Notes under the pieces: model-generated
What the model saw: the letters and a program-made list of their open reading frames with translations, nothing else
Databases searched by the model: none
What the model was told of the DNA's origin: nothing
In this document: in pieces, positions 6,185-27,815 of the stretch
Layout of the letters: each line of letters begins with the position of its first letter
Position numbering within the stretch: the stretch's first letter is position 1
Assembly (NCBI GenBank): GCA_048881705.1
Contig: JBHLSH010000016.1
Span: 1-42,892, forward strand
Direction of reading: 5' to 3'
Source: Candidatus Heimdallarchaeota archaeon
GTDB lineage: Archaea > Asgardarchaeota > Heimdallarchaeia > Hodarchaeales > Hodarchaeaceae
DNA length: 42,892 nt
Translations under genes and position numbers: made by a program

Positions 6185-6191
6185 AGTTTAA

Positions 6192-7381: not shown

Positions 7382-7813
7382 TTAAAACTTGTCTCTAATC
7401 ATGATAAAGTAGATGATAAGGAGAAGCGTCACTATTGGACCAAAAAGGAAGCCCCATGCACCCACTTGAGCTGCGGTTAGGAGGAAATTAATGTCTAAAA
7501 GGTAGGTTATACCATTCAATAAGTAAAGTACCAGATCGACCGCCCAGGCCCATTGTTTCATATTCCAAAGTCCCCTACCTAATAAAAAGAACAACAAACC
7601 GACGATGATAAAAACAATTCCAACGAACTGTATAACGGCGCCAATTACAGCAAAGAAAGGTTGCCAGACCGGAGGAAGGTTGTCGAGGATTGCTTGGCCC
7701 ACTGTAAAGATAAGGATGGTATACAGAACTCCAACAAAAATCGCTAGTACACCAATTAGCATTTGCAGTACACTAATGATTGAAACTACGAGTGGACGAT
7801 CTTTCTTGGCCAT
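7382..7813 (-). CDS. Small four-TM membrane protein of unknown function
   Basis: Four hydrophobic segments, with RPLVVSIIS and GRGLWNMKQWAW motifs. Clean ATG start. Confidence 0.75.
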   Translation of the reverse strand: MAKKDRPLVVSIISVLQMLIGVLAIFVGVLYTILIFTVGQAILDNLPPVWQPFFAVIGAVIQFVGIVFIIVGLLFFLLGRGLWNMKQWAWAVDLVLYLLNGITYLLDINFLLTAAQVGAWGFLFGPIVTLLLIIYFIMIRDKF

Positions 7814-7974
7814 CTTTAGAAGACCTCACATGATAACGTTTCAAAAGAACGCGAAGAGAAACTTACTTCCCATTACACTTAAGACTTTTCTTCTGTTTGT
7901 GTTATTACCTACCAAGCAGTTTCTTGCCCTCTCTGGGGAAAAAGCGTAATGCTGAGCAAAATGGTGGTGGAAAA

Positions 7975-11975: not shown

Positions 11976-12371
11976 ATGGTTAAAACAACACAATTAGTTT
12001 TCTCTGGTATTATAATTGCTATATCTGTGGGGGCAATTTCCTTACTATTGACGGAGTCATCTATACCCGTATTTACAGTAAGGGAAATAATGGAACACCC
12101 AAACTCCGAATCCTTTTTAGATCGAAAAATCCAGCTGATTGGTACTGTGGCTGATGTAAATAGAACGGGATTCTACATTTTAGACCCAGATGATCCTACA
12201 AATTTATCTCTAATGATCTACGTAAATTCGACTAATGTGGGAAAACCTAACGGGTTTGAACCGGGAAAAAATGTACTCGTTGAAGGTAAACTCATATCCA
12301 CGTCTGGTTTATGGCTATTTAGGGCCAATATGATTAGTACCAAGTGCCCCAGGGAGTATTCAAACAGTTAG
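11976..12371 (+). CDS. ccmE: Heme chaperone CcmE, CxxxY (System I*) variant
   Basis: N-terminal TM anchor, OB-fold pattern (IQLIGTV...PNGFEPGKNVLVEGKL), and C-terminal KCPREY in place of HxxxY. Confidence 0.88.
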   Translation: MVKTTQLVFSGIIIAISVGAISLLLTESSIPVFTVREIMEHPNSESFLDRKIQLIGTVADVNRTGFYILDPDDPTNLSLMIYVNSTNVGKPNGFEPGKNVLVEGKLISTSGLWLFRANMISTKCPREYSNS

Positions 12372-12455
12372 TCCGGACCATTAATAACCATCTCATCCTT
12401 CCTCAAACCGCAAACCAGTCCATATCTCTTCCAATTCAATCGAAAACGGATTAGG

Positions 12456-13136
12456 TTACTGATTGATCAGATCATCGGTGATAGCCAGGGCGAGCGTTAA
12501 GAGGAGGATCGCATGGAAGAAAAGAATTAGAATGTTGTTCATCACGAATCCAGGATCATCATATAGGACTAGACTCGAGGTGGCCTGTGTGGCAATTAAA
12601 ATGCTAGGTAGAACGATTGGAAAGAAGAGAATGGGGACAGCTAAGGTCTTTGATTTTGCGTATATTGTTAGAAAAGAGACAATACACCCTCCAATCGCAA
12701 GATCAAAGGATCCAATAACCAAAACTGCACCAAAGAGCATAGCTTGGTTTGAAAATCCTATCCGCATAAATACAATCGCTAAAGCGATTGTAATAACTTC
12801 AATTATTGCGAGAATAGCACAAAGATAGACTAATTTAGCTAGAAAGATCGCTTGGGGTTTAATAGCTAGTGAAAGAAGTGCATCGACCGTACTTTTTCGC
12901 ACTTCGCGAAGAAAGATAGATGTAACTCCCAACATGACAGAAAAAGTTATGATAAACCATAAAGAGGCCGCAGTAATCGTTTCTCGGGTCTCTTGAGAAA
13001 TATCCGCCAGATTGAACAGTGTGGAGAATATTAGTACGGAAGCAAGAGAAAATAGTCCCATGGCGAATAGGGTTTCCTTTTTCCGGAACTCTAAGGTCAG
13101 ATCCTTCTTAGCAAGAAAGAGGATGTCTGAAAGTAT
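12456..13136 (-). CDS. ccmB: Heme exporter membrane subunit CcmB
   Basis: Six hydrophobic segments, with LLSL..KPQAIFLAK and LAVPILFFPIVLP. The frame is open upstream of the ORF-track ATG (13061) and encodes the CcmB-like KKDLTLEFRKKETLF, so I extended it to a possible ATA at 13136. The start is uncertain. Confidence 0.85.
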   Translation of the reverse strand: MLSDILFLAKKDLTLEFRKKETLFAMGLFSLASVLIFSTLFNLADISQETRETITAASLWFIITFSVMLGVTSIFLREVRKSTVDALLSLAIKPQAIFLAKLVYLCAILAIIEVITIALAIVFMRIGFSNQAMLFGAVLVIGSFDLAIGGCIVSFLTIYAKSKTLAVPILFFPIVLPSILIATQATSSLVLYDDPGFVMNNILILFFHAILLLTLALAITDDLINQ

Positions 13137-13158
13137 GGTCGTTCTAGATCCCTTCTAC

Positions 13159-13857
13159 TCAAGCAGATTTCTCCAAGAAAAAACCAAATTCAGATTTTTC
13201 TAATATCTTGGATATTTTTCCTTTTTCCAGGTATATCACTCTGTCACATAGCTTGGCTACGGTTCTAAAATCGTGAGAACAAATTATGACAGTTCTGTTG
13301 GACGGTCGATTGGTTATTAGATCAATCATGATTTTTCTGTTCTCGAAATCTAGTCCGGCAAAGGGTTCATCCAATAACAATAAACGTGGGTAGGTTGGAA
13401 TAATTACTCTTAAAATTTCAAGCTTTTTTGCCATACCAGTTGAAAGCTCATGAGTTGGACGATCAATATACAATCGCAACTTGTGATCGGAAATAAGTTT
13501 ATCTATTATCGAATCTGGATTCATCCCTCTTTTGTTCATCCTCATGAAAAACTCTAGATTTTCTCTTCCGCTTAAATCCTCATAAAAGAATGGGGTGCTA
13601 AGTAAAACACCAATATCTCTCTTGAGCAAATCTTGGTTTTCCGAAACACGCTTTCCGAAGAGTGATACTTGCCCATTAGTAGGCCTCATAAGAAGAGAGA
13701 TGATTTTAAGTAGAGTGCTTTTTCCTGCTCCATTGGGACCCAAAAATCCTATCGTTTCCCCCTCAGTAATAGAAAATGTTACGTCTTTGAGGGCATTGGA
13801 AAATCCAAAGGCCTTGTAAACGTGTGATACATTTACAGATTGAGCGTCCGTGATCAA
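13159..13857 (-). CDS. ccmA: ABC ATPase CcmA
   Basis: Walker A GPNGAGKST, signature LSTGM, Walker B LLLLDEPF, H-loop SHD. Directly upstream of ccmB. Confidence 0.88.
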   Translation of the reverse strand: MITDAQSVNVSHVYKAFGFSNALKDVTFSITEGETIGFLGPNGAGKSTLLKIISLLMRPTNGQVSLFGKRVSENQDLLKRDIGVLLSTPFFYEDLSGRENLEFFMRMNKRGMNPDSIIDKLISDHKLRLYIDRPTHELSTGMAKKLEILRVIIPTYPRLLLLDEPFAGLDFENRKIMIDLITNRPSNRTVIICSHDFRTVAKLCDRVIYLEKGKISKILEKSEFGFFLEKSA

Positions 13858-13935
13858 CGTGTTTTCTCCCGATTTCGCTGGTTTTCAGGTAGTCGAAGAG
13901 TCTACGCTTAAAATTCTAGAGGAATCGAGGCCTAA

Positions 13936-14100
13936 TTAGGCTCTTTCTTCAGATTCGAAGAGTCGTAATTCTTTCTGTAACTTATTCATTCTATTGTTTA
14001 TATAGAATATGTACACTAGAATTAAAATCCAGACAGCTGTTGAAACTAAAAACAATAAACTTAATTCAGAACCTAGTAAATCATCAATTATGGTGGCCAT
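13936..14100 (-). CDS. ccmD: CcmD-like small membrane protein (54 aa; absent from the ORF track)
   Basis: Hand translation gives MATIIDDLLGSELSLLFLVSTAVWILILVYIFYINNRMNKLQKELRLFESEERA. It has one TM with W..L..Y and a charged helical tail, and lies between ccmC and ccmA on the same strand. Confidence 0.8.
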   Translation of the reverse strand: MATIIDDLLGSELSLLFLVSTAVWILILVYIFYINNRMNKLQKELRLFESEERA

Positions 14101-14126
14101 AACGGTCTCACAATCCTTTTTCTTTG

Positions 14127-14834
14127 TTACATCTGATCTAGCTTTAACATTCTTATATTTTTTAACTTAAACTCGATTTCATTGGTAATAAATGTCAAGT
14201 ATACAAGGATCAACGTGATTATCCCAGCCACCAGGAAATTTGACATTAGGATCATCCCTACTCCTTCTCCAAGGGCGGTTTGCTGCGGTTCTGGATGGAG
14301 TGGCCCGACTGTATAATTAGACAGTAGTACTGAAGGAGATACGACTATTCCAAATATTGCTGTCAATAAAGCTCTTCTCTGAGGGTTCTGTTCTTCCAGC
14401 ATCCCGCGGAATATTAGTAGAGCGATGTATGCCAACCACATTATGAGAGTTGCCGTCTGACGAGGTTCCCATTGCCAAAAGTAACCCCATTCAGCGTATG
14501 ACCATAATATACCAGTAATTAGCGTAATGGCCCCCACAACAATGCCCGTCTGAGCTGCTGCCACCAATAAAAAGTCTGAACGGAACCCTATTTGTTTTTT
14601 CCTAACGGAGGTGTTAATTATGTAATAAAGCCCGCTAAGAAGTACAATGGCAAAACAGATGTATGTTGAGAATGCAAAAGGAACCATATAAAAGATCGGA
14701 TGTCCACTGACCGTGAATCCAGATGTAAAAGGTTTTACAACGATATAAACAAGGTAATAGTTGATTACCATGAAAAGAATAAGGATACCTAATAATAATG
14801 TTTTTTCCCGATTTCCGATATTAAATGAAATCAA
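14127..14834 (-). CDS. ccmC: Heme exporter/heme handling protein CcmC (variant)
   Basis: WWD motif WSYAEWGYFWQWEPRQTATL and second His (PLHP) are present. The usual YxHVP reads FYMVP. Confidence 0.88.
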   Translation of the reverse strand: MISFNIGNREKTLLLGILILFMVINYYLVYIVVKPFTSGFTVSGHPIFYMVPFAFSTYICFAIVLLSGLYYIINTSVRKKQIGFRSDFLLVAAAQTGIVVGAITLITGILWSYAEWGYFWQWEPRQTATLIMWLAYIALLIFRGMLEEQNPQRRALLTAIFGIVVSPSVLLSNYTVGPLHPEPQQTALGEGVGMILMSNFLVAGIITLILVYLTFITNEIEFKLKNIRMLKLDQM

Positions 14835-15212
14835 TAATCGATCTCCGGACTTCTTTTGTCGATTTGTAGACAGAAAGGATTGTTACATGATATCTAAAAA
14901 GAATGATGCTATATCAGAAACGATTGTTAATGTAGTTTAAATCTAGTGGAAGAATCAATATTCTATTTGCTAAAAATCCTGTCTGAAATCTGGCAATTCC
15001 TGTTTGGTCAATATTTCGCGCATTTAAATGTTAAAGTAATTGGGATTAAGTGAGTTTTGTAACCGACATACCTCCCAGTGCTTCTCGGGAGGGTTTTACA
15101 TCTGTAACTCGGGTTTACAATAGTTTAGAATTTTTATACTTTTGTATGTTTTTTTCGAACAAAATTAAAATAGTCAGAACTGGAACAAACTTTTGTCCTT
15201 TCTAAGACGAAA

Positions 15213-15234
15213 TTTACAATGTAAATATTGTAAA
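15213..15234. promoter_or_regulatory. Palindromic candidate operator TTTACA-N10-TGTAAA
   Basis: TTTACAATGTAAATATTGTAAA has 8-bp arms (TTTACAAT/ATTGTAAA) and lies in the divergent ccmC / EB_dh intergenic region. The same core recurs at 27794-27815. Confidence 0.5.
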
Positions 15235-15295
15235 CATATCTTTCAAGTTTAGGAAAGTCTTCTAATTCAAGAATAAGAACAATGGAGAAATTAAA

Positions 15296-16444
15296 TTGCG
15301 AAATACTAACCTAACAAAGCTTTTGGCCATTGTAGCATTCTCTACGCTAGTATTCGTCGTTTTTACCCAGAACCGTGCAAACATTGAGCAGGCAAACCCT
15401 ACTCTCACATCGTATAAGGTCACGGGTACCATTACCCTAGATGGGATGGCAAATGAAGCTTTCTGGACCGACGCAGATCAGCTAGAAATACTCAACATTG
15501 GCAATACTTTCAATTTAACCGTTATGTCTGTCCATAATGCAACGCATGTATTTCTGTTCTCAACGTGGAATGACGCTACGGAATCGAGCACCCGCAACGA
15601 TTGGATGTTTAACAGTACCCAGATGTGGGAAAATCTACAACAAAACGAGGATCGAATTACCTATTTCTGGTCAAATGCCTCATTAACACCTAAATGTGGG
15701 CATTATGTCTTCAGTCCAAATGCCTCCGCTGGCTTTCAGGGCGATGTATGGCATTGGAAGGCATCTCGAACCGCTCCTGCTGGTTGGGTTGACGATAAAT
15801 ATTTCGATGGTACCGGAAGACATTCTGATGCCAAAAGCTCTGGTGGATATCTGGAAAACTCTGCAATAGTACAAATGTTCGGTGTGAACACTTCGGGAGA
15901 GATCACAAATGTCCTCGGGAACTCAACTATTGTATACGCAAACGAATCATTTACTGACAGAGATCGACCCTTCTGGGATGCCCAGGGAAGTGTAATATCA
16001 TGGACCAACGGTGTAAACGATACGGCCGTCTCTGCAAATATTCCAGGATACTTGACAACGGTTCCAGTTGGAAGCCGTGGAAACGTCCTTGCAGAAGCTG
16101 TTTATAGCTCTGGCATGTGGAGTGTCGAAGAGGTTCGCAAGCTGGATACAGGAAACTATAAGGACGATATTAAGTTCGAAGAAGGTATGACCTACAACTT
16201 TTCGGTTGCCATTCATGACAATGGTGGCGGCGGTAGTCATAAAAGGCAGTCAGGTTTTGGATTTGCTGTTTCAGCCTCTGCTCCACCAACAACAACGACC
16301 ACGACCACAACCACCACGACCACCACGACCACAACCACAACCACAACCACTACGACCACTGGTCCCACTCCTGGCTTTATAATTGCTGGAACGGTTCTCG
16401 CGATTGCCACAATGGTCATAATAGCTAGAAGAAAGAGACAATAG
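15296..16444 (+). CDS. Exported EB_dh/DOMON-like heme-binding-family glycoprotein with Thr stalk and PGF-CTERM anchor (paralog 1)
   Basis: Signal-like N-terminus, TLDGMANEAFW, VHNATHVFLFSTWND, EDRI, DVWHWKASRT, DDKY, WSVEEVRKLDTG..DDIKF..G.TYNFSVAIHD. Ends with 24 Thr, then TPGF + TM + RRKRQ. Confidence 0.8.
   Translation: MRNTNLTKLLAIVAFSTLVFVVFTQNRANIEQANPTLTSYKVTGTITLDGMANEAFWTDADQLEILNIGNTFNLTVMSVHNATHVFLFSTWNDATESSTRNDWMFNSTQMWENLQQNEDRITYFWSNASLTPKCGHYVFSPNASAGFQGDVWHWKASRTAPAGWVDDKYFDGTGRHSDAKSSGGYLENSAIVQMFGVNTSGEITNVLGNSTIVYANESFTDRDRPFWDAQGSVISWTNGVNDTAVSANIPGYLTTVPVGSRGNVLAEAVYSSGMWSVEEVRKLDTGNYKDDIKFEEGMTYNFSVAIHDNGGGGSHKRQSGFGFAVSASAPPTTTTTTTTTTTTTTTTTTTTTTTTGPTPGFIIAGTVLAIATMVIIARRKRQ
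16289..16360 (+). repeat. ACN trinucleotide tract encoding 24 consecutive threonines
   Basis: Counted directly: 24 ACN codons of mixed synonymous types between CCA CCA and GGT. Confidence 0.95.
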
Positions 16445-16449
16445 TACTG

Positions 16450-16490
16450 TTCTCTCTTCTCCTCTCTTTTTTTTTGACTCTTTTTATTCT
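16450..16490 (+). terminator. Probable archaeal oligo-T terminator
   Basis: A pyrimidine tract ending in T9 (16467-16475), plus a further T5, directly after the stop at 16444. Confidence 0.55.
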
Positions 16491-16690
16491 AATTCATCTA
16501 AAGTGAAATACAAGGGAGTATAAGGCCTTCCAGAATTATTGGATATATATCTAGGGCTTCCATCCCTAACAGCGATTGGAATATCTTATCAATTCATTGG
16601 GACGAAAACTTGATATTTGATTTGTGCATTTTGTGGGGAGTGATATCGTAACTTCCAAAATCCACTGAAGAAATAGAGGGGTACCGAAGG

Positions 16691-17920
16691 TTGAAAATAG
16701 GTAATTTGGTTAGAATTTTGGTGATTTCGGGAACGTTTTTTCTAGTTTTCTTTCTTGTTTCCCTGGAAACAGCAACCGTTACTCAAAGCAGAAACCTAAT
16801 TTCTTATTATTTTCCGAGCAAGATTCTGTTGGATGGAAAAGCGGCGGAGGATTTTTGGTATAACGCGGATAAGTTGGAAGTTCGCAAATTTGATGGCACT
16901 AACATGAACCTGACAGTCATGACCGTCCATAATTCGACTCATCTCTTTTTGTTTTCAACGTGGACTGACGTTACGGAATCTAATACTTATAACGACTGGA
17001 TATTTAACAGTACCAAAATGTGGGAGAACTTAGGAGGAAACGAGGATCGGATAACCTTTTTCTGGTCAAATGAATCCAATTTCCCGAACTGTGCACATTA
17101 TACATTCAATCCCAATCCATCGCTTGGATTTCTCGGAGACGTATGGCATTGGAGGGCGTCCAGAACAGCACCCGGGGGCTGGACTGATGACAGATTCTTT
17201 GATGGTTTAGGCCGGCATTCCGATGCTAAAACGTTTGGCGGATATAAAGAGAATTCAGTGGTAGTACAAATGTTTGGTGTGAACAGCTCTGCAGAGATCA
17301 CAAGTGTCCTTGGGAACTCAACTACTGTATCGTCAAACGAATCATTCACTGATAGAGATCGGCCATTCTGGGATATCCAAGGTAGTGTCATTGCCTGGGT
17401 AAATGGTGTCAACACTACGAATATCGGCGCATCCATACCAGGATATTTAACAACGGTTCCAGTGGGAAGCCGTGGGGACGTCCTTGCAGGAGCTGTCTAC
17501 AGCTCTGGTATGTGGAGTGTCGAAGAAGTTCGCAGGCTGGACACGGGAAGCTATAAGGACGATATTAAGTTCGAAGAAGGTTTCACGTACAATTTCTCGG
17601 TCGCCATTCATGACAATGGTGGCGGCGGTAGTCACAAAAAGGAGGCAGGTTTCGGATTTACAGTTTCAGCATCTACCCCGCCAACAACCACGACCTCGAC
17701 TACTACCACCACTACAACCAACACGACAACGACCACCACTACTACACCAACAACTACGATTACAAGTACTACTAGAACCATGGATACCAAACGGGCCACC
17801 CCTTCAGCCGATTTAACTAGCTCCACCACTTCTATTTTGCCGCTGCTATCACCTGGTTTTATTTTACCAGCTTTGACGATTAATCTCGTGATTATAGTTA
17901 TCTACGTCCGAAGGAGATAA
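16691..17920 (+). CDS. Exported EB_dh/DOMON-like heme-binding-family glycoprotein with Thr stalk and PGF-CTERM anchor (paralog 2)
   Basis: Tandem duplicate of 15296..16444 at a 1395-nt offset, with the same motifs. Ends SPGF + TM + RRR. Confidence 0.8.
   Translation: MKIGNLVRILVISGTFFLVFFLVSLETATVTQSRNLISYYFPSKILLDGKAAEDFWYNADKLEVRKFDGTNMNLTVMTVHNSTHLFLFSTWTDVTESNTYNDWIFNSTKMWENLGGNEDRITFFWSNESNFPNCAHYTFNPNPSLGFLGDVWHWRASRTAPGGWTDDRFFDGLGRHSDAKTFGGYKENSVVVQMFGVNSSAEITSVLGNSTTVSSNESFTDRDRPFWDIQGSVIAWVNGVNTTNIGASIPGYLTTVPVGSRGDVLAGAVYSSGMWSVEEVRRLDTGSYKDDIKFEEGFTYNFSVAIHDNGGGGSHKKEAGFGFTVSASTPPTTTTSTTTTTTTNTTTTTTTTPTTTITSTTRTMDTKRATPSADLTSSTTSILPLLSPGFILPALTINLVIIVIYVRRR
17684..17779 (+). repeat. 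Thr-rich low-complexity linker
   Basis: Encodes TTTTSTTTTTTTNTTTTTTTTPTTTITSTTRT. Confidence 0.9.
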
Positions 17921-17967
17921 CTAGCAGGAGTTTTTATCAAACGATAATCAATACTGCCTGAAGAGAT

Positions 17968-19989
17968 TCATCCAAGCGACCTAGTTAGTCTCCTAGTTTT
18001 TGTAGCTATCAAGGGGATTAGACTTACAAGGAGCAAAATGACCCCTAGCCACAGAATGTGGATAAGAGGGATGTACCTAACCTGGATCGTTGCGCTATCG
18101 AAGATTCCAGTATCATCATTCTCAAAAACAAAATCTAGAACTAGGTAAATGTCATCAGGCAATTGTGTAATTATTTGGATCTTTTGGTCAACACCCCAAA
18201 TCGTATCGATTCTATAATACAGAACTCCTTCTGATATGATATCAGATCCAAGTTTTAGCTCATATTGGACTTCATATATTGATAGATATGGGCTATCGTT
18301 TGGAATGGTCTTATTGAAGTTTGAGACGGTGATTTCATAATTTGTGTCTAGAACAGTGACATTTGATCCGTCTTGAACATCGATTAGATCGGTTGAACGC
18401 AGTGTGCCGCTAGTGACGATGCCCAAAACGATTATAAGTAAGGAAAGGTGTAAGAGCGACTGGCTAGTTTTCTGAAATACATTTCCCGTTCTATGAATTA
18501 ACAAAGTTTCAGTTAAGTTCCATATCAGGCCAAAAAGGCCCAAAAGCATGAGAGGTAGGAAGAAATTAGCCACGTCGTTCCTAGTAATTAGTTTCAGGGC
18601 GTAAAAACCGATGCCAGCTAAAACTCCCACTACTAACAAACCTAACCTAAATTTTAGCCCGATATTACTGTAATATTTGCAGAAGAAGGAAAAGACAAGG
18701 AGAATCACTCCAAAACATACAAATATAGCTGTAAAATAGCTAGGACCAACAGAAATGCTCGGACCAAGTATTAAGGTTAGTTCAGGAATGAAATCGCTCA
18801 AAACATTATAAATAAAAGGTAAAAATATCCCTGTTATCATAACATACGTTCCCAAGATAATCGTCAGGTATGAAAGCTTAAGAAAAGTATCCTTATAGGT
18901 TGAAATAATTGATAGCTCATTGAAATTGAGATTGATATCCAAATTTGCTTTATTAATATATGCAAAAATATGCGGTAGAGTGAATGTTACAATGAGGACG
19001 ATCAGGATTATGAATGTATTTTCATCGGGCGCAAAGGTGTGCACACTCTCAAGAATACGGCTCCGTGTGATCAAGGTCGCCAATAGTACCCCTACGTATG
19101 ACATACATGTAAAGTAATATCCTAGAAAAGGGTTCTCCTTGTGTATTGAACTTCCGTGATAATAAATGGTAATAAACAGCCAGGGGATTAGTGACGATGT
19201 CTGTACTGGATCCCAACTCCAAAAACCTCCCCACCCAAGGGTAGTGTAAGCCCAATAGGCTCCCAATGCAACGCCAAGAGAAAGCAGCCACCAGGCCAAA
19301 GCAATCTGAAGCTCCGCGAAAGATTCAATTTTCATGATTAAAGGTCGTTGAATCTTTGAATCTTCCCGTAACAATGATATACGTGCCAGAGCAATTGCCA
19401 TTGGCACCAAACAGAATGAATACCCCATGAGAATAATCGGAGGATGAGTGATATTCCAGATATTCGTGAGAACTGGATTCAAACCAATGCCATCTGAGGG
19501 AGTAATAGTATTAAGCTTAAAGGGGTCGCTTATTAGAGTAAACAGCCACAAGATTACCATCTGGAAGGAAATCATAAGTGAAGCCCGATGGATTAAGGAC
19601 TCTTCTGAATCGTTTCTAAATACAAAACGGAATATCGTATAAGATAGGAGACTGAAAACCGCCCAAATAAAAAAGGATCCTGCGGTTCCAGACCAAATTG
19701 CCGCGATCCGCAGAAGAAAATCCATTCTTAAATTGACAAATGATGAAACGTAGGATAATCCATAATCCGGAACTTGCAGTAAAGCCACGAAATAGAAGAA
19801 AGATCCCGTGAACAGTATGAAACCAATAATCAGGCTTGCAAAGGCGGGTTCCTTTACCCTTTTCTTCAAAGGTTCCGTTAGGCCAGGAAATAATTGAAAA
19901 AGAAAATCCAGAAAAAGAAAGATCCCACCAAGAAGTAACAAAATTAGGCCAAAATCAAAGGAGATGATTCCAAAATCTAATAGAAACAT
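17968..19989 (-). CDS. ccmF: Cytochrome c synthetase CcmF
   Basis: WSGTAGSFFIW, GLNPVL..IWNITHPP, GAYWAYTTLGWGGFWSWDPVQTSSLIPW, YYHG and SVHTFA. Many TM segments. Confidence 0.92.
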   Translation of the reverse strand: MFLLDFGIISFDFGLILLLLGGIFLFLDFLFQLFPGLTEPLKKRVKEPAFASLIIGFILFTGSFFYFVALLQVPDYGLSYVSSFVNLRMDFLLRIAAIWSGTAGSFFIWAVFSLLSYTIFRFVFRNDSEESLIHRASLMISFQMVILWLFTLISDPFKLNTITPSDGIGLNPVLTNIWNITHPPIILMGYSFCLVPMAIALARISLLREDSKIQRPLIMKIESFAELQIALAWWLLSLGVALGAYWAYTTLGWGGFWSWDPVQTSSLIPWLFITIYYHGSSIHKENPFLGYYFTCMSYVGVLLATLITRSRILESVHTFAPDENTFIILIVLIVTFTLPHIFAYINKANLDINLNFNELSIISTYKDTFLKLSYLTIILGTYVMITGIFLPFIYNVLSDFIPELTLILGPSISVGPSYFTAIFVCFGVILLVFSFFCKYYSNIGLKFRLGLLVVGVLAGIGFYALKLITRNDVANFFLPLMLLGLFGLIWNLTETLLIHRTGNVFQKTSQSLLHLSLLIIVLGIVTSGTLRSTDLIDVQDGSNVTVLDTNYEITVSNFNKTIPNDSPYLSIYEVQYELKLGSDIISEGVLYYRIDTIWGVDQKIQIITQLPDDIYLVLDFVFENDDTGIFDSATIQVRYIPLIHILWLGVILLLVSLIPLIATKTRRLTRSLG

Positions 19990-20136
19990 AGAAAAACGCC
20001 TTCGTTTGTTAAGAGTCTGGTAGTAGGAAATACCAAAGCATCAGTGGATTTATTTCAATTGGTACGCGCTGAGCCGATGCATTCTTATTCTTAGCTTTCC
20101 GAAGTTTTACTAACAGATAAGGTACGGAACTGACCT

Positions 20137-21114
20137 ATGCGAACTAGTCGTATTAACAATGTACGATTACAGATAGATTCACGTCTTACTATCATCTTGG
20201 CGACGATAATCGTCCTTGGTGATCGTATATTAGTACTTCTAACGAATACAAAGAACTTGCATAAACTTCCTCTCCCTTCTCTCGATATTTTGCAATTCTT
20301 ACTGGCCGTGGCTAGTCTCACGTTACTTTTGCTCTTTTTATTTCGTTATGAGCCTTTTTTTGGCAGAAACATTGAACTTCTGATTTTTAGCATTATCGCT
20401 TTGAATGGAGTGAATACGACTCTTTTCCTAATCCAGGAAGGAATGCTATCTCCTTTCATTCGTCTCCTGACCTCTATAATCACAATCTTGCTAATATTAG
20501 TTCTAAGCACTAGACCAAAACTATTAGAATCTTCGGAGTTTGCAAATCTAAAACTAATCGTGTTTACTGCAAATCTAGGTTTGCTCGGTTTCGTAATGGC
20601 TGAATTACTTGAAACCCTTTATTTTGGTCAATTTATTTTTTATTTTCAATTCGTAGGAACCTTATTCGCTCTCTTCGCTATTCTTATTTTTTCTTCTACC
20701 GCGATTGTGACACCATATTATCGGAATCAAAGAAAGGGCTATAAAACAGTGTTGGCTTTCATAATCCCGCTCCTTGTGAGCTTTATGGTTAGTATTTTAC
20801 TATCTTCTCGGCAATTAACGGTTCAAATCCTCACCTCTTCTCTAACCCAGACCCTTCGCCTAACCATATTTAGAGAAATCCCCGGAATTTCCCAATCTGT
20901 TCAATCCTTCTTTTTAACACTGATTCTAGGAGCAATATTCCTGGGGATTACTGGTCTAGTTTCCTTGTACAGCAAACATAAAATTACCCGTTTAGTTGGT
21001 CTTACTGGATTATTGATTTGCGGATTAGAAGTGGTTTTTCCGTATATTGTGCTACTGCGACTCATTATTGTTTTTGAATTGATGAACAATAGTAGTCCGA
21101 ATTCTATTACATAA
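20137..21114 (+). CDS. Polytopic membrane protein of unknown function
   Basis: About 9-10 hydrophobic segments. No motif recognised. Confidence 0.7.
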   Translation: MRTSRINNVRLQIDSRLTIILATIIVLGDRILVLLTNTKNLHKLPLPSLDILQFLLAVASLTLLLLFLFRYEPFFGRNIELLIFSIIALNGVNTTLFLIQEGMLSPFIRLLTSIITILLILVLSTRPKLLESSEFANLKLIVFTANLGLLGFVMAELLETLYFGQFIFYFQFVGTLFALFAILIFSSTAIVTPYYRNQRKGYKTVLAFIIPLLVSFMVSILLSSRQLTVQILTSSLTQTLRLTIFREIPGISQSVQSFFLTLILGAIFLGITGLVSLYSKHKITRLVGLTGLLICGLEVVFPYIVLLRLIIVFELMNNSSPNSIT

Positions 21115-21136
21115 TCAGATCAATTATTCTACGGCT

Positions 21137-21916
21137 TTAGGGTCGTTTTAACGCAAATCTGGCCAAAAGCATCAGAACTAGTATGCCTATGCTATATACG
21201 ATTTCCAGTATTAATTCTGATTCCCATATATTAACTTGAGGCTGACCTGGCACCTCGTAAGTAGTCCAATCACTGTGAGAGGTACTCTGGATTAACGGAC
21301 CAAAGTGGTTATCCCAGTAAGCAAACATTAGATTGAATCTGTCCCCTGGATGCAAGGAAACATCATATCCAGGAGAGTCGTTTGAATCAAGAGGTTTGGT
21401 TCCCTCCATAATTAACCCATCACCACTCGGATTAAGTTTTATACTTCCTTTTCCGTCATTGGTTCCATTTTCAAGGATATCTGCGACTGCAGGATTCCCC
21501 ATTCCTTGAAGAAAGAAATCTTCACCTCCAGGTTGATTATAAGACACAAATAAGGCATCATCTGGGGAAAACGAAAGGCCCATTGGTACTTTATCGCCAT
21601 TATTATCAAATTCCACCCCAAAGAAATCGTGTCCCCCGCTTTCTCCAAATAACTTTGGATCATCATCACTAACCTGAATTAGAATAAAAATGTGGCTCAG
21701 ATTGAATTTGATGGTAACGTCGATTGTGGTTCCATCTGCCATTTGTAAAATCCGTCTATCGCCACCTTCCCATTCTTCCTCTGTGATAATTCCGTCAATC
21801 ACTGGAAACTCCGAGCTCAGAGATTTCAGAAGGATTTTCGATCCGATTAAGAGATAAACAATTAGAACCAGAGGAATAAGGCTTTTTATCAATTTTTTTG
21901 GCCAAATTATCTTCAT
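21137..21916 (-). CDS. Membrane-anchored DOMON-like domain protein
   Basis: Signal-like N-terminus, PVIDGII..EEW, EFDNNGD..PMG, EGTKPL...D....PG..FNLMFAYWD...HS, and a C-terminal TM. ATGA overlap with the upstream LanC-like gene. Confidence 0.7.
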   Translation of the reverse strand: MKIIWPKKLIKSLIPLVLIVYLLIGSKILLKSLSSEFPVIDGIITEEEWEGGDRRILQMADGTTIDVTIKFNLSHIFILIQVSDDDPKLFGESGGHDFFGVEFDNNGDKVPMGLSFSPDDALFVSYNQPGGEDFFLQGMGNPAVADILENGTNDGKGSIKLNPSGDGLIMEGTKPLDSNDSPGYDVSLHPGDRFNLMFAYWDNHFGPLIQSTSHSDWTTYEVPGQPQVNIWESELILEIVYSIGILVLMLLARFALKRP

Positions 21917-23613
21917 ATGGCGTCTTTCCTTCGTAATGCCAGTATTGGGATTAGTAATAACATCGATACTGAAGCGAATCCAAGTAAGGAGAGGAGCAAT
22001 TGCTCATCGTTATCAATCTGCCCATTTACTGTTGTTTCTGAACTTTGATTATCAATATATATTTGGGGTAGCATTTCTCCGAACTCGGGAAGAGCAGAAC
22101 AATTTATGATTTCGGGATATTTCGGAGTTGCTTGTAAACTTTCGGCCACCTTCAAGAAATATAAAGCCACGCCTGCTGCTCCGCTATGGTACCCAAGGTG
22201 ATGACCATATTGCTTAAGATGGAATGGGTGACGAGTCGTCCCCGTAGCAACTGGAAAAAGGTAACCATCTTTTCGTAGCGAAACCAACCACTCTGCCGCC
22301 CCTAGCATCGCGTTTTTGAATTTTTCACATCCGAATGCGGAATAAGTCTCTGCAAAAAAACTTCCAATCCCTGCCGCTCCTGATGAATAGCCCGTGAAGT
22401 AGGTATTATAATCTGGTTCAGCCGTAGTTTTCGCCCATTTCAGACCTTGATCTGAATTATTGGCATGTCCGATTAACCAGCTTGCTGCATCAATTGCGCC
22501 TTCTGCATATTTCATATCAGCTGTGGTGTGGTATAATTCCAGTAAAAACTGACCTATCCCTGCAACTCCGCTATCTATACCAGCAATTGTATGGTACCTG
22601 GTTGAATTGGGATCTAACTCGGTTATATAGGTTGGACCACCATTTAGCCAGGTCCCGTTGATTTGTTTTGAAAGTAACCAATTTCCAATGAAGCTCGCTG
22701 CGTCAAGCCACTTTGAATCATTTGTTGAACGATAAAGAGATAATAGGAACGAGCCAATGCCTGCGTTTCCCCCTCCGTATCCCGTGAAAAAGGAGGTGTT
22801 AAAGGGAGCGAAATCAGACCATGGAATGCTCCATTCCTGTTGTTCGTCTGTACCAATCTTGCTAGCAAGTTTCGTTAGCCATTCGCCGGAACTAACTGCG
22901 ATATCTATCCAATGGGTGTTATTTAAAGTGACGCCAGCTTCTAGAAATACGTTGGCTATTCCTGTTACTCCATACGTAATGTCAGTCACGCCTTCGGAAC
23001 CAGAAAGGGTATAACTCCAGAAGGTATCATTGTCAGAGGAATTGTGAGCTACCGCCTCTAACGTAAGAAGAGAGTTTCGCAATGGCTCGTAATATGTTTG
23101 GTTGTTCGTAGATTTTAAAAGGTCTAGGAAGAAAAGAGCAATCCCCGCATTTCCATACTTCATCCCAATATAGGTTGTACTGTAATCCTCAGCACCATAC
23201 CAGTAAATTCCATTATCAGAGAGGTTCTGAGCATTTTGGATAAGGTAGTTACCAGCCCTCTCAGCGTATTTGAGATAACTCTGATTCTGTGTCGCATCAA
23301 ATAGAGTGATGAGGGTATCCGCCACACCTGCGGTCCCCCACCAGTATCCATAATAGAAATTATTCCAAGATCCCAGCCATCCTGGTGGAGGGCCGTCAGC
23401 GATCCTAGGCCATTTGACAAAATTGCTGTCCCCAATGGCCTCTCCAATCAATCCATTGGCTATTTCAATGGCGATCTGTTCAAGCTCCTGTGGGGAAAAC
23501 AATACAGTATAATGGGAAAAACTGATGGAACCCTTGAATTGCACGACCATTGAAGTACCGGTGATCAAGATAAGGAAGCTTACACCAAACCATTTGGTAT
23601 ATCTGTTTTTCAT
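21913..23613 (-). CDS. Exported, membrane-anchored LanC-like alpha/alpha-toroid protein lacking Zn-binding motifs
   Basis: Seven G-x-x-G repeats: WGTAG, YGNAG, YGVTG, GGNAG, SGVAG, SGAAG, SGAAG. N-terminal and C-terminal hydrophobic segments and many NxS/T sequons. I prefer the ATG at 23613; the ORF-track start at 23715 overlaps nrfD. Confidence 0.75.
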   Translation of the reverse strand: MKNRYTKWFGVSFLILITGTSMVVQFKGSISFSHYTVLFSPQELEQIAIEIANGLIGEAIGDSNFVKWPRIADGPPPGWLGSWNNFYYGYWWGTAGVADTLITLFDATQNQSYLKYAERAGNYLIQNAQNLSDNGIYWYGAEDYSTTYIGMKYGNAGIALFFLDLLKSTNNQTYYEPLRNSLLTLEAVAHNSSDNDTFWSYTLSGSEGVTDITYGVTGIANVFLEAGVTLNNTHWIDIAVSSGEWLTKLASKIGTDEQQEWSIPWSDFAPFNTSFFTGYGGGNAGIGSFLLSLYRSTNDSKWLDAASFIGNWLLSKQINGTWLNGGPTYITELDPNSTRYHTIAGIDSGVAGIGQFLLELYHTTADMKYAEGAIDAASWLIGHANNSDQGLKWAKTTAEPDYNTYFTGYSSGAAGIGSFFAETYSAFGCEKFKNAMLGAAEWLVSLRKDGYLFPVATGTTRHPFHLKQYGHHLGYHSGAAGVALYFLKVAESLQATPKYPEIINCSALPEFGEMLPQIYIDNQSSETTVNGQIDNDEQLLLSLLGFASVSMLLLIPILALRRKDAI

Positions 23614-23671
23614 CAATGTACCTAAATTCAATGTTAGATTTGAAAAAGCCTGGGAGCTTTTGGTAATGCGG

Positions 23672-25165
23672 TTATTGAGCTCCGTCCTCGAAACGGAATT
23701 CCGCCGGCCGCTCATCTTCTATTCTTTCTTTCTTGCCGAGAATCAGTTCACTGGAAATTTCCTCTTCTCTTTGTTTCTGAGTCTCTGAAAGCGGAAAAGT
23801 TTGATCAGCAAATGATGTGGGATACCTCAAATCTGCCTCCTTCCACAATTTGCGGTTTTTTTCATCTTCGAGGATTTCCCATAGCGGAGCAATGGGGAAG
23901 AACTTCATCGCGATTGCAATTCCAAACACCAATGCGGTAAATGCACCCAAAGTAATGGCAGCTTCAACCCAAGTGGGGATATAGGTCCCCCAAGGTCCCG
24001 CTATCCAAGGTCGCGCCATAGCTGGAACGATAATCACATACCGTTTCATCCACATCCCTATATTGACGAGAATCGAGGCAATGAAAATGCCAGTGATACT
24101 ACGGGCTCTTGTAAAGAAGAAAATGTTTCCTGGAATTACTATCCCACCCACGATTGAGAACCAGAAAAGTATCGCATAATCTCCATAGAAAAGGGCATTA
24201 AGAAGCTCTGCCTCTTCGGTTGGAGTAGAGTATAAAGCTCCAATGTATTCTGAAAACGTGAAGTAAGCGTATCCAAGGCTTAAGACAACCATAATTACAC
24301 CCATATTTCGGAAGTGCCGTTCTGTCAGAATTTTCTTATATTCAGGATAGATGACCCTTATGATGAACATGGCGGTAATTAACGCTGCAGATCCAGAATA
24401 TAGTGCTCCAATAACGAAATAAGGTCCAAAGATTGTACTACGCCAACCTGGCCGTAACATGACTCCTCCTACTGTATAAGAAACCACGGTGTGAACTGTA
24501 ACCATGACAGGAATGAGAATCCAAGCCATGAACCCAATTCCTCTGTTTAAACGCTTATGTTGAGCTTCAGTCCCTTGCCAACCCAAAGCCAGAAACCTCC
24601 ACAGCCACCGTTTGAGCCAAAAAGCATCCGTACTGAGATGATCACGCATCAAGGCGAAATCTGGGATAAGGGCGATATAAAGATAAACCAAGCTTCCTAC
24701 CAAATACATGGAAAGCGCTAGAAAGTCCCAAAGGATGGGGGAATTAAACTTGCCAATCGTTATGACATATAGAATTCTGTCAATGCGGCCAATATCAATC
24801 AAAACCATTGCTGCTCCAATTAGTAACCCAAAAGCTGTTAGCAACTCACCGATCCTAGTTATCGGGTGACGCCATTGGGCATCCGTAACACGCAATACTG
24901 CAGAAATAAATGTCCCCGCGTGAGAGATTCCGATAAAGAACACAAAATTGGTGATATAAACCCCCCAAGAAACCTTGTCACGTAATCCAGTAACTATCAA
25001 ACCATTAATAAATTGATTTAGATAGGCGTAGGCCGCAAACAATAGGATTAGGAGCATCAATATGAGAGTGACGAAATATAATCTTCCCGTTTTCATCACG
25101 GGATGTAGTAATATTTGCGCGCTTTTGTTATCATCAAGGAATGTGTTTCGTTTTTCAGTCTGCAT
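23672..25165 (-). CDS. nrfD: NrfD/PsrC-family quinol-interacting membrane subunit, ActC-like
   Basis: WGVYITNFVFFIGISHAGTFISA, WRHPITRIGE, DIGR, SPILWDFLALSMY...LIPDFALMRD, HTVVS and GALYSG. ATG at 25165 follows GAGGT. Confidence 0.9.
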   Translation of the reverse strand: MQTEKRNTFLDDNKSAQILLHPVMKTGRLYFVTLILMLLILLFAAYAYLNQFINGLIVTGLRDKVSWGVYITNFVFFIGISHAGTFISAVLRVTDAQWRHPITRIGELLTAFGLLIGAAMVLIDIGRIDRILYVITIGKFNSPILWDFLALSMYLVGSLVYLYIALIPDFALMRDHLSTDAFWLKRWLWRFLALGWQGTEAQHKRLNRGIGFMAWILIPVMVTVHTVVSYTVGGVMLRPGWRSTIFGPYFVIGALYSGSAALITAMFIIRVIYPEYKKILTERHFRNMGVIMVVLSLGYAYFTFSEYIGALYSTPTEEAELLNALFYGDYAILFWFSIVGGIVIPGNIFFFTRARSITGIFIASILVNIGMWMKRYVIIVPAMARPWIAGPWGTYIPTWVEAAITLGAFTALVFGIAIAMKFFPIAPLWEILEDEKNRKLWKEADLRYPTSFADQTFPLSETQKQREEEISSELILGKKERIEDERPAEFRFEDGAQ

Positions 25166-25180
25166 CGGGAAATACCTCAA

Positions 25181-26029
25181 TCAGCGTTTCGGTAGGTAAA
25201 AAACACGGGGTTTTGTACCCAATTCCTCTTGTAAACGATAGCCCATTCTTTCTTTGACCGTGTCTGAAAGAGTAACTGTTTGAAAGGTGCCATTTGTTAC
25301 TAAATCGTGATTTAGATTTCCAAAATAGAGCGCACCGCCAGGACACGCTCCTACGCAGGCAGGAAGCTGACCGTCCTTGGCAGAATGGGAACAAAAATCA
25401 CATTTCTCAACAACTCCTCTTTCGTGAGGCAGCGGATAGTGTGGCGAATATGCCCCCAACTGCTTGGAATATTCAATTTCCTCTTCTCGGGTGCCAAACC
25501 ACGGCTCTGGTTCACCCCAATTGAAGTATCGTGCATTGTAGGGACAGGCCGCGATGCACATCCGGCAACCTATGCATATCCTATGATCTATTAGCACAAG
25601 TCCTTCCTCATTTCTAAATGTAGCCCCAGTGGGGCATACCCACATACATGGGGGGCTTTCACAATGCATGCATGGTCTAGGTAGGAAATATTTACCTGCG
25701 ACAGCGTTATCTTGTTTTTCGTAAAGCTGTATCCATGCTTGGGGTTCTGGTGGTTCCGCGGGCTCCCCTGATTCCTTGAATCGTTTGGGGACATAATGCA
25801 TGATGGCGCAGGCTTCTAGACAAGAGCTGATCTCTCTATCTTGACAGCCATCACATTTTTCCAAATCAATCATCATAACCCATTGGGGAGGAATCTCCTC
25901 TGCATGAGTTGCATTTTGACGACCTAGAGACTGCTGGTTGAAGTTTAATTTAGATGTAACGGCAAGAGTTCCTCCAACCGCTCCTATTGCGCCTAATAGT
26001 TTGAGAAAACTTCTTCGTGACGTCGGCAT
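25181..26029 (-). CDS. Tat-exported multi-[4Fe-4S] protein (NrfC/DsrO/ActB2-like)
   Basis: Twin-arginine SRRSFLK. Cys motifs CDGC-x7-CLEAC, CMHCESPPCMWVCP, CIGCRMCIAACPY and EKCDFC...PACVGACP. Confidence 0.92.
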   Translation of the reverse strand: MPTSRRSFLKLLGAIGAVGGTLAVTSKLNFNQQSLGRQNATHAEEIPPQWVMMIDLEKCDGCQDREISSCLEACAIMHYVPKRFKESGEPAEPPEPQAWIQLYEKQDNAVAGKYFLPRPCMHCESPPCMWVCPTGATFRNEEGLVLIDHRICIGCRMCIAACPYNARYFNWGEPEPWFGTREEEIEYSKQLGAYSPHYPLPHERGVVEKCDFCSHSAKDGQLPACVGACPGGALYFGNLNHDLVTNGTFQTVTLSDTVKERMGYRLQEELGTKPRVFYLPKR

Positions 26030-26056: not shown

Positions 26057-27769
26057 CTAATTCACCTGTTCCTTTCCAGATCTTATTCTAACCGCGTTAT
26101 ACAGTACATATCCATAAACCAAAAAAACGCCTGCTACCAGAGTTAATGCTCCAGCCGATACAGCTCCGAAGATTCTTGGATCATCAAACCAAATGAATTC
26201 TTCGACATGCTCTTCAGGAATCAGGTTGATAGTAAAATATTCTTCGTGATTTGCAAGAATTTTCGTTCCAACTGTTTGGCCTGGAAATTCGATTACAAAG
26301 TTGATTAGACCAGCTACATTTTCCAAATCGTAAACAAATTTAACAGTGCTCTCAGTATTAGTTATGTTAGAGCCTAGTAGCATTCTTCCGAAGGTAAAGT
26401 TTAAATACATGTTAATTCTCCTTCCATCCATCAAGTTCGGATCTCCACCCTCTAGAACTTGGAACCTCGCCTCAAGAATTATTCTAGTTCCCTGCGGAAT
26501 CTCCGTTCCAGCTGGAATCGATGTTCCAGTAGTATCTGTCGCATTAACCGTCATATCAATATTTAAGGTTTCAAATGGCGATACTAAGAGATCGTATGTA
26601 ATAGAATGCTCTGGGTGCATGCTGACAAAATCATCAGCTGTCCTATTATGAGAGAGAAAGAAACCATACGTTGAATTGATCGAAAAGTCGTGATCTAATG
26701 GAATGTCCCCCGACTTTAACGGGAATACGAATTCGATAATTGTATGGGTCGCATTTTCGGTTCCCCCACTAGCTTTAATGTCAAAAGTTCCATTGGCCGA
26801 GATATCGGGGTGGTGTTCACCTGGCTCCCCGTAATCATCACTCATATGAACTCCAGTAGCATTGACAAACCCAATAATAATATTGGATCCATTTTTATGA
26901 GCGTTCTTCGGTCCAAATCCTATCCCCAACCAACCACTATGCCCTGGAGGTGAAATCAGACCGATAAACATATCAGTATTGTTGTGTTCCAAGTAAACAT
27001 TGATTTCAGTCAATGGGTCAACCATCGATGATTCATACTCATTTAGACCGATAATGCCATCGACAGAAACAATCGGATTTGTAACCAAAGGCATTATGAT
27101 AGATGACGTTTCCAGCTTAATGGTGATCAGGTTGGAATGGTCGGGATGATACGAGCCGAAATTATCAGCCGTCGGATGATTGGCCAGATGAAAGCCGTTT
27201 TCTTGGCCCAAAATCCAAGAATGGTCATAACTGTCCCCTGATGAAAGAGGAAAAACAAACTCAATCACCGTGTGTGTTTCGTTTTCTGTACCTGCCGCTG
27301 CCTTGATATCGTTCGTCCCTCCAGAGTCAATATCCGAAAAATGTTGCGTTCCCAATCCGTAGTGATCCTCGATCGCAAATGTTCCATTATCCGATACATA
27401 TCCCATTATAATATTCGCGCCGTCCATTGGAACGCTTTTTGGTCCCAATCCGATGCCGACCCAGCCCTTTGTTGGGCTTTCCAAGGCAACAAACAAATCA
27501 GTACCGTTGTGGCTAAACGAGACAATGATCCCTGTGAGCTCGTGTGAATCTTCCAAGGTTACTGGATATTCACCTTGCGAGACAATCCCATCTATTACAA
27601 CCTCAGTTGGAATAACGTAAGGAACAGATACGTATCCAGTCAAAGGGGGAAATCCGTGGTTAGGGCCCGCCAGCGTTGCAGAATTTGGTTTTCCAATTAT
27701 TACAACTAAAAAAATAAAAAACAGGAAAAAGGTACTTTTCCGTTTGGGTGGTAAATTAGGTTGACGCAT
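26057..27769 (-). CDS. Exported protein with two tandem DOMON domains, an Ig-like domain and a C-terminal TM
   Basis: Two repeats of IDG...GW.GIG.GP.......N.I.G....ED.Y...H..D...G..DI.A..GTEN.THT.IEFVFPL.SGD...H. Domain 1 has PMDG and YHPDH. Confidence 0.85.
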   Translation of the reverse strand: MRQPNLPPKRKSTFFLFFIFLVVIIGKPNSATLAGPNHGFPPLTGYVSVPYVIPTEVVIDGIVSQGEYPVTLEDSHELTGIIVSFSHNGTDLFVALESPTKGWVGIGLGPKSVPMDGANIIMGYVSDNGTFAIEDHYGLGTQHFSDIDSGGTNDIKAAAGTENETHTVIEFVFPLSSGDSYDHSWILGQENGFHLANHPTADNFGSYHPDHSNLITIKLETSSIIMPLVTNPIVSVDGIIGLNEYESSMVDPLTEINVYLEHNNTDMFIGLISPPGHSGWLGIGFGPKNAHKNGSNIIIGFVNATGVHMSDDYGEPGEHHPDISANGTFDIKASGGTENATHTIIEFVFPLKSGDIPLDHDFSINSTYGFFLSHNRTADDFVSMHPEHSITYDLLVSPFETLNIDMTVNATDTTGTSIPAGTEIPQGTRIILEARFQVLEGGDPNLMDGRRINMYLNFTFGRMLLGSNITNTESTVKFVYDLENVAGLINFVIEFPGQTVGTKILANHEEYFTINLIPEEHVEEFIWFDDPRIFGAVSAGALTLVAGVFLVYGYVLYNAVRIRSGKEQVN

Positions 27770-27793: not shown

Positions 27794-27815
27794 ATTACAG
27801 TGTTTTCATTGTAAT
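27794..27815. promoter_or_regulatory. Palindromic candidate operator ATTACA-N10-TGTAAT
   Basis: ATTACAGTGTTTTCATTGTAAT lies about 25-45 nt upstream of the tandem-DOMON start (27769). Same core and spacing as 15213-15234. Confidence 0.5.

Follow-up and report, generated by a model that had tools for sequence, protein, structure and literature searches.

In a 42,892-nucleotide stretch of the genome of a Candidatus Heimdallarchaeota archaeon (contig JBHLSH010000016.1 of assembly GCA_048881705.1; the whole stretch is called the window below), two paralogous surface proteins of the EB_dh family, P0001 and P0002, are encoded among genes of the System I cytochrome c maturation (Ccm) machinery. Each has a single cysteine, placed two residues before a histidine, in the loop where most EB_dh domains carry a two-cysteine C-x-x-x-C-H (CX3CH) motif. 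This C-x-H motif is invariant in an Asgard clade that descends from CX3CH relatives, and all five full-length members of one clade of the lyase CcmF are encoded directly beside a C-x-H gene. P0001 and P0002 are very probably heme-binding extracellular electron carriers of some kind. More tentatively, the sequences can be read as those of bis-histidine monoheme surface cytochromes whose heme would be held by one thioether, attached through a dedicated CcmE/CcmF pair, and which would serve a neighbouring module of NrfD, iron-sulfur (Fe-S) and DOMON proteins.

The C-x-H loop of the EB_dh pair

The two genes lie in tandem:

15296..16444, + strand: EB_dh-1 (P0001), Pfam EB_dh, 382 residues
16691..17920, + strand: EB_dh-2 (P0002), Pfam EB_dh, 409 residues, a 68% identical paralog of P0001

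Both proteins match the Pfam EB_dh model (PF09459) far above its cut-off of 33.3 bits, with 88.7 bits (E 7.9e-25) for P0001 and 75.3 bits (E 9.5e-21) for P0002. Translation starts at a TTG codon in either case, with a GGAG or GGGG element 8-12 nt upstream (GGAG at 8 nt for P0001), and the resulting N-termini line up with those of homologs. The two share one architecture, consisting of an N-terminal hydrophobic segment (signal peptide or transmembrane helix), the EB_dh domain, a poly-Thr linker, many NxS/T sequons and a C-terminal anchor of the PGF...RRKR type (PGFIIAG...RRKRQ in P0001). The NCBIfam Heimdall-CTERM model is matched below its threshold (21.1 bits, cut-off 24).

An earlier note on this DNA had claimed one cysteine per paralog, kept with its histidine in a diverged segment, in genes placed between ccmC and ccmF, and each part of this description is borne out. 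Reading of the translations gives Cys134 as the sole cysteine of P0001 (TGT at 15695-15697, motif PKCGHY) and likewise of P0002 (TGT at 17090-17092, motif PNCAHY); the cysteine and the histidine are retained even though the paralogs differ at 10 of the 25 positions of residues 122-146; and the Pfam-annotated flanking genes place ccmC on one side of the pair and ccmF on the other, with ccmD, ccmA, ccmB and ccmE further to the left. The motif histidine, His136, is encoded at 15701-15703 in P0001 and 17096-17098 in P0002, and a second histidine that matters below, His315, at 16238-16240 and 17633-17635. The window holds no canonical two-cysteine motif anywhere: CxxCH, CX3CH, CX4CH and CxxCK are all absent from its frames of at least 80 residues.

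Homologs were gathered by a word-indexed search and an exhaustive HMMER search, which yielded a compact Asgard clade of Hod- and Thorarchaeal proteins with 39-57% identity to P0001. Cys134 and His136 are invariant in an alignment of 27 sequences (39-68% identity to P0001), as are the EDR and DxWHWKAxR motifs on either side, and His315, which lies within the pattern '[FH]DN.G...H', is kept in at least 90% of them. The larger set used for tree building gives the same result, with Cys134 and His136 present in 31/31 clade proteins, separated by G, A or V, and with no other cysteine in the whole protein for 27 of the 31. Four further clade genes read from their loci each encode one cysteine, in CGH. 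This pattern of conservation is beyond chance, and the constancy among orthologs that the earlier note's proposal presupposes holds in all 31 records and in the four locus-read genes.

We then aligned 196 EB_dh domains (150 best representatives and the Asgard set) to the clade profile and scored the loop between EDR and DxWHW:

C-x-x-x-C-H: 135 of 196 domains
single-cysteine C-x-H: 33 of 196 domains
no cysteine in the loop: 21 of 196 domains
'CH' (three without another loop cysteine) or other: 7 of 196 domains

In a FastTree phylogeny of 166 near-full EB_dh domains all C-x-H rows fall into a single clade with support 99, which branches from within the CX3CH lineages. This shows that the C-x-H proteins descend from CX3CH relatives. 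The earlier note had placed a CxxCH motif just after EDR/EDK in many homologs. C-x-H does map onto a heme-c motif loop, but the motif found there is CX3CH and not CxxCH. The CX3CH proteins, named 'ethylbenzene dehydrogenase-related protein', share with the Asgard clade the Pfam domain, the loop, its histidine and the C-terminal '[FH]DN.G...H' histidine; they differ in having two cysteines, at the canonical positions His-5 and His-1, where the Asgard clade has one, at His-2, which matches neither. One of them, ANME2D_02958 of Ca. Methanoperedens, has a conserved CxxxCH and is predicted to be a cytochrome c in the supplement of Kletzin et al. 2015 (PMC4429474). No biochemical or structural characterisation of a CX3CH EB_dh protein turned up in the PDB and structure searches made. 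Elsewhere in the family, P0055 (Thermoplasmatota), P0135, P0156 and P0149 are EB_dh proteins that have naturally lost the first cysteine (xxxxCH), one of them with C-K for C-H; the heme loop of the family varies repeatedly.

An AlphaFold2 model built on the 27-sequence alignment was compared with known structures by Foldseek, which returned NxrC (7b04_C, E 1.7e-9) and EbdC (2ivf_C, E 3.4e-7), gamma subunits of type II DMSO-reductase-family enzymes, at the top, followed by CBM9 domains; the modelled fold is a beta-sandwich like theirs. NxrC and EbdC are also the best PDB matches by sequence, and in both the heme is lodged between the corresponding loop and C-terminal strand. No c-type EB_dh protein with a solved structure came up in the PDB sequence searches. 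The heme b ligands are Met155 and Lys305 in NxrC (PMC8387239) and likewise a Met/Lys pair in EbdC (PMC8840923). By the local HMMER alignments on which our ligand mapping rests, the methionine of both proteins precedes the [DN]xW[HY]WKA strand by exactly 8 residues, which puts it in the loop of CX3CH and C-x-H, and both lysines come 3 residues after the alignment column of His315. In EbdC we take these residues to be Met108 and Lys201, the former number being reportedly that of the 2006 structure paper. The methionine is not kept in the C-x-H clade, whose members have G, N, A, S, D or P at position -8.

P0001 and P0002 therefore resemble EbdC and NxrC in fold and pocket and depart from them in other respects. 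The two characterised proteins bind heme b non-covalently through Met and Lys, have no cysteine in the loop and are subunits of soluble molybdenum enzymes, whereas the Asgard proteins lack a methionine at -8, have His315 near the lysine site and are anchored at the surface. A molybdopterin subunit was found among none of the window's open reading frames scanned; the partners are instead NrfD, Fe-S and DOMON proteins. The most economical reading of the pocket is a bis-His heme, with His136 and His315 as presumptive ligands in the ancestral site. On geometric grounds a cysteine at i and a histidine at i+2 are unable to bind the iron of one heme axially from opposite sides, and so one of the two should have another role; with the histidine on the iron, the cysteine side chain would reach the heme edge.

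Two CcmF clades and two lyase modules

The Ccm genes of the window surround the EB_dh pair:

11976..12371, + strand: ccmE, island copy CcmE-A (P0007), C-terminal KCPREY of the archaeal CxxxY heme-binding type; Pfam CcmE PF03100
12456..13061, - strand: ccmB; Pfam CcmB PF03379, E 4e-9; single copy in the genome
13159..13857, - strand: ccmA, ATP-binding cassette (ABC) ATPase; Pfam ABC_tran; 60% identity to ccmA of the Hodarchaeales ccm locus L008
13936..14100, - strand: ccmD-like small membrane protein of 54 residues, resembling reading frames of 56 (L008) and 50 (L018) residues, both between ccmC and ccmA
14127..14834, - strand: ccmC, WWD heme-handling protein; Pfam Cytochrom_C_asm, NCBIfam ccmC; single copy in the genome
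17968..19989, - strand: ccmF of clade A (P0004), with WWD motif and four heme-handling histidines

The 54-residue frame is probably ccmD. A search with the window's CcmF returned Heimdall-group proteins in two bit-score groups, and in the resulting tree, which is of quick-search or FastTree quality, these groups form sister clades, A and B, each with a Shimodaira-Hasegawa-like approximate likelihood ratio (SH-aLRT) support of 98. Clade A comprises P0004, P0191-P0194 and the partial P0201. All five full-length clade A ccmF genes stand directly and convergently beside a C-x-H EB_dh gene (window and loci L006-L008, L017, L159 and L160), and where the contig is long enough, at L006, L017 and L160, the DOMON/Fe-S/NrfD set lies beside ccmF as well. 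The four motifs absent from the window are, at the same frame length, absent from L006, L008, L159 and L160 too; the sole instance at L017 is a CX4CH in a 91-residue frame that overlaps a called gene on the opposite strand. Clade B, with 20 rows, adjoins multiheme cytochromes, and at locus L018 its operon runs multiheme cytochrome, X, ccmF, ccmE, ccmC, ccmD, ccmA, ccmB.

We considered whether CcmF-A might lack the residues for handling heme and rejected this. P0004 matches Pfam Cytochrom_C_asm and CcmF_C, carries the WWD motif as WGGFWSWDP, and has H182, H278, H317 and H514 aligned with histidines that are invariant across 23 CcmF sequences, so that all four heme-handling histidines, two P-His and two TM-His, are intact. 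The only change specific to clade A at an otherwise invariant column is E263Q, next to the WWD motif (DPVE to DPVQ); every other CcmF compared, whether from clade B, Thor archaea or bacteria, has a glutamate there. Clade B carries a 25-residue insertion just after P-His2 that clade A lacks.

The earlier note had called the adjacent Ccm system a variant, and this did not hold. CcmE-A scores 24.9 bits against the Pfam CcmE cut-off of 24.6 and ends in KCPREY; a C-terminal CxxxY in place of HxxxY is simply the ordinary archaeal type of CcmE, reportedly defined by Allen and colleagues in 2006. We accordingly discarded CxxxY as a sign of a variant Ccm. What is distinctive is the duplicated CcmE/CcmF pair.

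The source genome (3.96 Mb in 155 contigs, 41% GC, 91% complete), of which the window is contig C16, has one ccmA/B/C set, located in the window, together with two ccmF and two ccmE genes. The second copies are on contig C91 (about 2539-8983), where a clade B ccmF (741 residues) and a ccmE 53% identical to CcmE-A directly follow an anchored cytochrome and a 787-residue protein. As contig C91 has no ccmA/B/C, both lyase modules appear to share the ccmABCD of the window. The C91 cytochrome is an anchored protein of 446 residues that carries six CxxCH and one CX3CH. A six-frame census of the assembly, filtered for signal and transmembrane segments, turned up no other convincing CxxCH protein that is exported. 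Ordinary CxxCH substrates, which in large numbers would have told against the earlier note's proposal, do thus exist in this genome, but as one multiheme cytochrome with a ccmF and ccmE of its own.

The link between C-x-H genes and Ccm that the earlier note looked for extends beyond these loci. Across 301 Asgard genomes, CcmF is found in 13/16 of those with a C-x-H gene and in 52/285 of those without, and within the Thor family in 12/14 and 21/62, respectively, counts that are not phylogenetically independent and whose significance is therefore overstated. The three C-x-H genomes with no CcmF match still have a gene of the CcmC family. Two further cases of an EB_dh gene beside ccm genes are the Thor-like locus L004 and G148, a second genome of the Heimdall class. 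Together with the five clade A genes beside C-x-H genes, this enrichment in CcmF-positive genomes upholds the phylogenomic link. One Thor genome, G239, has a C-x-H gene and ccmABCE, and four queries found no CcmF in it; the absence may be an assembly gap, since the genome holds 12.4 kb of N. We had considered G239 as a test of whether EB_dh proteins can be the sole Ccm client, but it is uninformative in this respect, given the N stretches and a cytochrome with 7 CxxCH and 2 CX4CH among the 2.79 of 3.16 Mb read. Locus L004 further encodes a distant third EB_dh-like protein, which has the canonical motif CNLCH (L004:19737-20546), as well as SCO1, a cupredoxin (COX2-like) and FAD-oxidase/CCG proteins.

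Possible roles of the single cysteine

In the scheme that we rank first, P0001 and P0002 would be exported, N-glycosylated and C-terminally anchored monoheme cytochromes of the EB_dh/DOMON fold. His136, whose loop joins the EDR and D-x-WHWKA strands, would bind one face of the iron and His315, near the position of the EbdC/NxrC lysine, the other; Cys134, set off from His136 by a small residue (G, A or V), would form a single thioether to a heme vinyl. CcmABCD would load heme onto the island CcmE, and the island CcmF of clade A would present it to the C-x-H loop, with the CcmE/CcmF pair of contig C91 serving the ordinary multiheme CxxCH cytochrome. The holo-proteins may then act as outer electron carriers for the adjacent NrfD/Fe-S/DOMON module.

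Dedicated System I and II lyases for deviant motifs are known, namely NrfEFG for CXXCK and CcsA1 for the CX15CH of MccA. The situation here is alike in that a duplicated lyase stands beside a non-CXXCH substrate and a general lyase is left for the ordinary cytochromes. It is unlike in that the known substrates receive two thioethers, and here there is one cysteine, CcmE is duplicated too and specificity is deduced from synteny alone. The deviant motif derived from a c-type one, its invariant lone cysteine, the duplicated adjacent lyase and the separate lyase for the ordinary cytochrome match the signature by which NrfEFG and CcsA1 had reportedly been identified. In the Ccm system of Escherichia coli, single-cysteine cytochromes mature very poorly and stay trapped on CcmE (PMC3268396), a finding that the pattern seen here makes sense of, since a specialised CcmE/CcmF pair would be needed. 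This failure and the NrfEFG/CcsA1-like signature are the reasons for which we place single-thioether attachment by the island Ccm ahead of the alternatives. That C-x-H is a new covalent heme-attachment motif, with one thioether from a cysteine two residues before the axial histidine, installed by a lineage-specific System I module (CcmE-A/CcmF-A) that would have evolved by duplication in Heimdall-group Asgard archaea, is a possibility that we put forward with real doubt.

Several points weigh against it. The poor handling of single-cysteine cytochromes by the E. coli system (PMC3268396 and references 23 and 24 therein) also cuts the other way. The register of the cysteine, at His-2, resembles neither canonical one. 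We know of no covalent heme attachment at a C-x-H motif. Most Thor genomes have the C-x-H gene on a contig other than that of ccmF, and Thor sequences yielded a single CcmF lineage, so that a dedicated lyase is not universal; the non-independence of the co-occurrence counts belongs here too. The AlphaFold2 model has a mean predicted local distance difference test score (pLDDT) of 63.7 and falls below 50 at residues 132-136, the C-x-H loop itself, which puts the geometry between cysteine and vinyl beyond its reach. Lastly, HemA (PF05201), HemB (PF00490) and HemC (PF01379) were not found in the source genome at its 91% completeness, and HemB was found in only 1/21 other genomes of the genus, some of them single-contig and up to 99% complete, with strong matches in sister families. 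Heme must hence be scavenged, an extra and unexplained step in any model, and the pattern suggests that the lineage, although it still matures cytochromes c, is auxotrophic for heme.

The characterised relatives, EbdC, NxrC and the weakly similar CbsA, bind heme b non-covalently. This speaks against a thioether and for a different arrangement, the main rival and in our view unlikely though to be taken seriously, in which P0001 and P0002 would be heme b cytochromes with His136 and His315 as ligands, Cys134 would line the pocket or tune its redox properties, CcmABCDE would supply the heme and CcmF-A might act as an insertase. The nearby ccm genes would be accounted for because extracellular b-type EB_dh/DOMON proteins need heme moved across the membrane. 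The island's three cysteine-free DOMON-type domains, if they bind heme, must likewise acquire it outside the cell, and at L006, L017 and L160 the EB_dh and DOMON genes are separated by clade A ccmF. Such an arrangement offers no reason, however, for an invariant cysteine two residues from a ligand histidine in otherwise cysteine-free proteins; it leaves the descent of the clade from CX3CH proteins unexplained, and no role of CcmF in heme b delivery is known. Alternatively, the thioether through Cys134 could form by itself once heme has entered, in the manner of SfmD or the R98C variant of cytochrome b562, with Ccm as heme supplier or not involved. SfmD does form a single thioether on a bis-His heme without Ccm (PMC8179489), single-cysteine variants of b562 bind heme covalently (PMC3268396) and many Thor loci are unlinked to ccm. 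Self-formation is nonetheless improbable given that 5/5 full-length clade A ccmF genes adjoin a C-x-H EB_dh gene and that C-x-H genes are enriched in Ccm-carrying genomes.

The invariance of the one cysteine in the heme loop, and the geometric argument against Cys(i) and His(i+2) as a pair of axial ligands on opposite faces, would also suit a heme in which the Cys134 thiolate replaces His136 on the iron. This would be a low-potential His/Cys heme as in SoxAX, TsdA and DsrJ, perhaps for sulfur chemistry or sensing. It would set aside the histidine of the ancestral CX3CH motif, the universal proximal ligand of c-type cytochromes, which is retained, and no sulfur-enzyme partner is conserved across the loci examined; we hold this to be quite improbable. 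Least probable of all, with only a very small chance of being right, is that the proteins use Cys134 for an intermolecular disulfide, between the paralogs or in a homodimer, or that they bind no heme and are glycan binders like CBM9. One free cysteine per chain and the related CBM9 fold would fit. The disulfide between paralogs, which the earlier note had named as its alternative, is unlikely because 14/16 carrier genomes gave a single gene match and yet keep the cysteine. The cysteine moreover sits beside a conserved histidine in a loop homologous to a heme motif, a second conserved histidine occupies the other ligand site, and the family-wide EDR and DxWHWKA motifs are kept.

Known systems and the surrounding island

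To our knowledge, heme c is attached at CXnCH, or at CXXCK where a special lyase is present, and attachment through a single cysteine occurs only outside Ccm. The (A/F)XXCH cytochromes c and c1 of Euglenozoa, heme ci of the b6f complex and SfmD (HxnHxxxC) resemble the proposed arrangement in having one bond between cysteine and vinyl, and SfmD is bis-His as well. They differ in cysteine register, fold, compartment and maturation (System V, CCB and autocatalytic, respectively), and none of them is C-x-H or a System I substrate. Our literature searches found no description of C-x-H attachment, nor of Ccm paralogs in Asgard archaea. CbsA, a subunit of Sulfolobus cytochrome b558/566, is an archaeal extracellular protein with one heme, heavy glycosylation and a C-terminal anchor. 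The EB_dh pair shows a weak NCBIfam similarity to it (E 1.2e-9), which at 37.5 bits against a cut-off of 468 does not amount to family membership, and CbsA differs in being a b-type cytochrome from an organism without Ccm.

If the proposed attachment is correct, the chemistry and substrate range of System I would extend to a class of proteins that canonical Ccm handles badly, and one genome with two lyases and two substrate classes would offer a natural system for the study of substrate recognition by CcmF. Single-thioether maturation would then take place in an organism seemingly unable to make its own heme, as part of a defined extracellular electron-transfer module (NrfD/Fe-S/DOMON/EB_dh) in Asgard archaea, a group whose capacity for respiration matters to models of how eukaryotes arose. 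Even with non-covalent heme, the strict synteny of CcmF and EB_dh genes would suggest that Ccm proteins have a hitherto unrecognised part in the loading of extracellular heme proteins.

The remaining features of the island are as follows:

15214..15233, + strand: palindrome TTACA-N10-TGTAA, copy 1, 63 nt 5' of EB_dh-1 (sequence scan)
20137..21114, + strand: polytopic membrane protein with no family match; a similar-size reading frame, also without a family match, is at the same place in L017
21137..21916, - strand: cysteine-free DOMON/EB_dh-like anchored protein (P0010), weakly similar by tblastn to EB_dh genes in their N-terminal part
21913..23715, - strand: LanC-like protein; a gene of the same family is at the equivalent place in L017
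23672..25180, - strand: NrfD-type membrane quinol-interacting subunit; Pfam NrfD, E 3e-33
25181..26029, - strand: NrfC/PsrB-type protein with four [4Fe-4S] clusters; Pfam Fer4_11
26057..27769, - strand: tandem-DOMON anchored protein (P0008) without cysteine; Pfam DOMON, two stretches
27795..27814, + strand: palindrome TTACA-N10-TGTAA, copy 2, just 5' of the DOMON/Fe-S/NrfD operon (sequence scan)

The palindrome has exactly 2 matches in the window, with 0.03 expected by chance. Since it occurs only these two times, upstream of EB_dh-1 and of the DOMON/Fe-S/NrfD operon, it is a candidate shared operator and suggests that the two belong to one regulon. The LanC-like gene sits within the NrfD/Fe-S/DOMON set, an arrangement found also at L017.

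The nearest named homologs of the window's genes are in Hodarchaeales, other Heimdall-group Asgard archaea and Thorarchaeota. Among 20 other genomes of the same genus, we found no C-x-H EB_dh gene and no match to P0004 closer than the C91-type copy; a CcmF match of the C91 type is present in 15 of the 20. The redox island (window 11976-29453) accordingly looks accessory, and it may be mobile. A phage-type integrase is encoded at 37593-38849 of the window.

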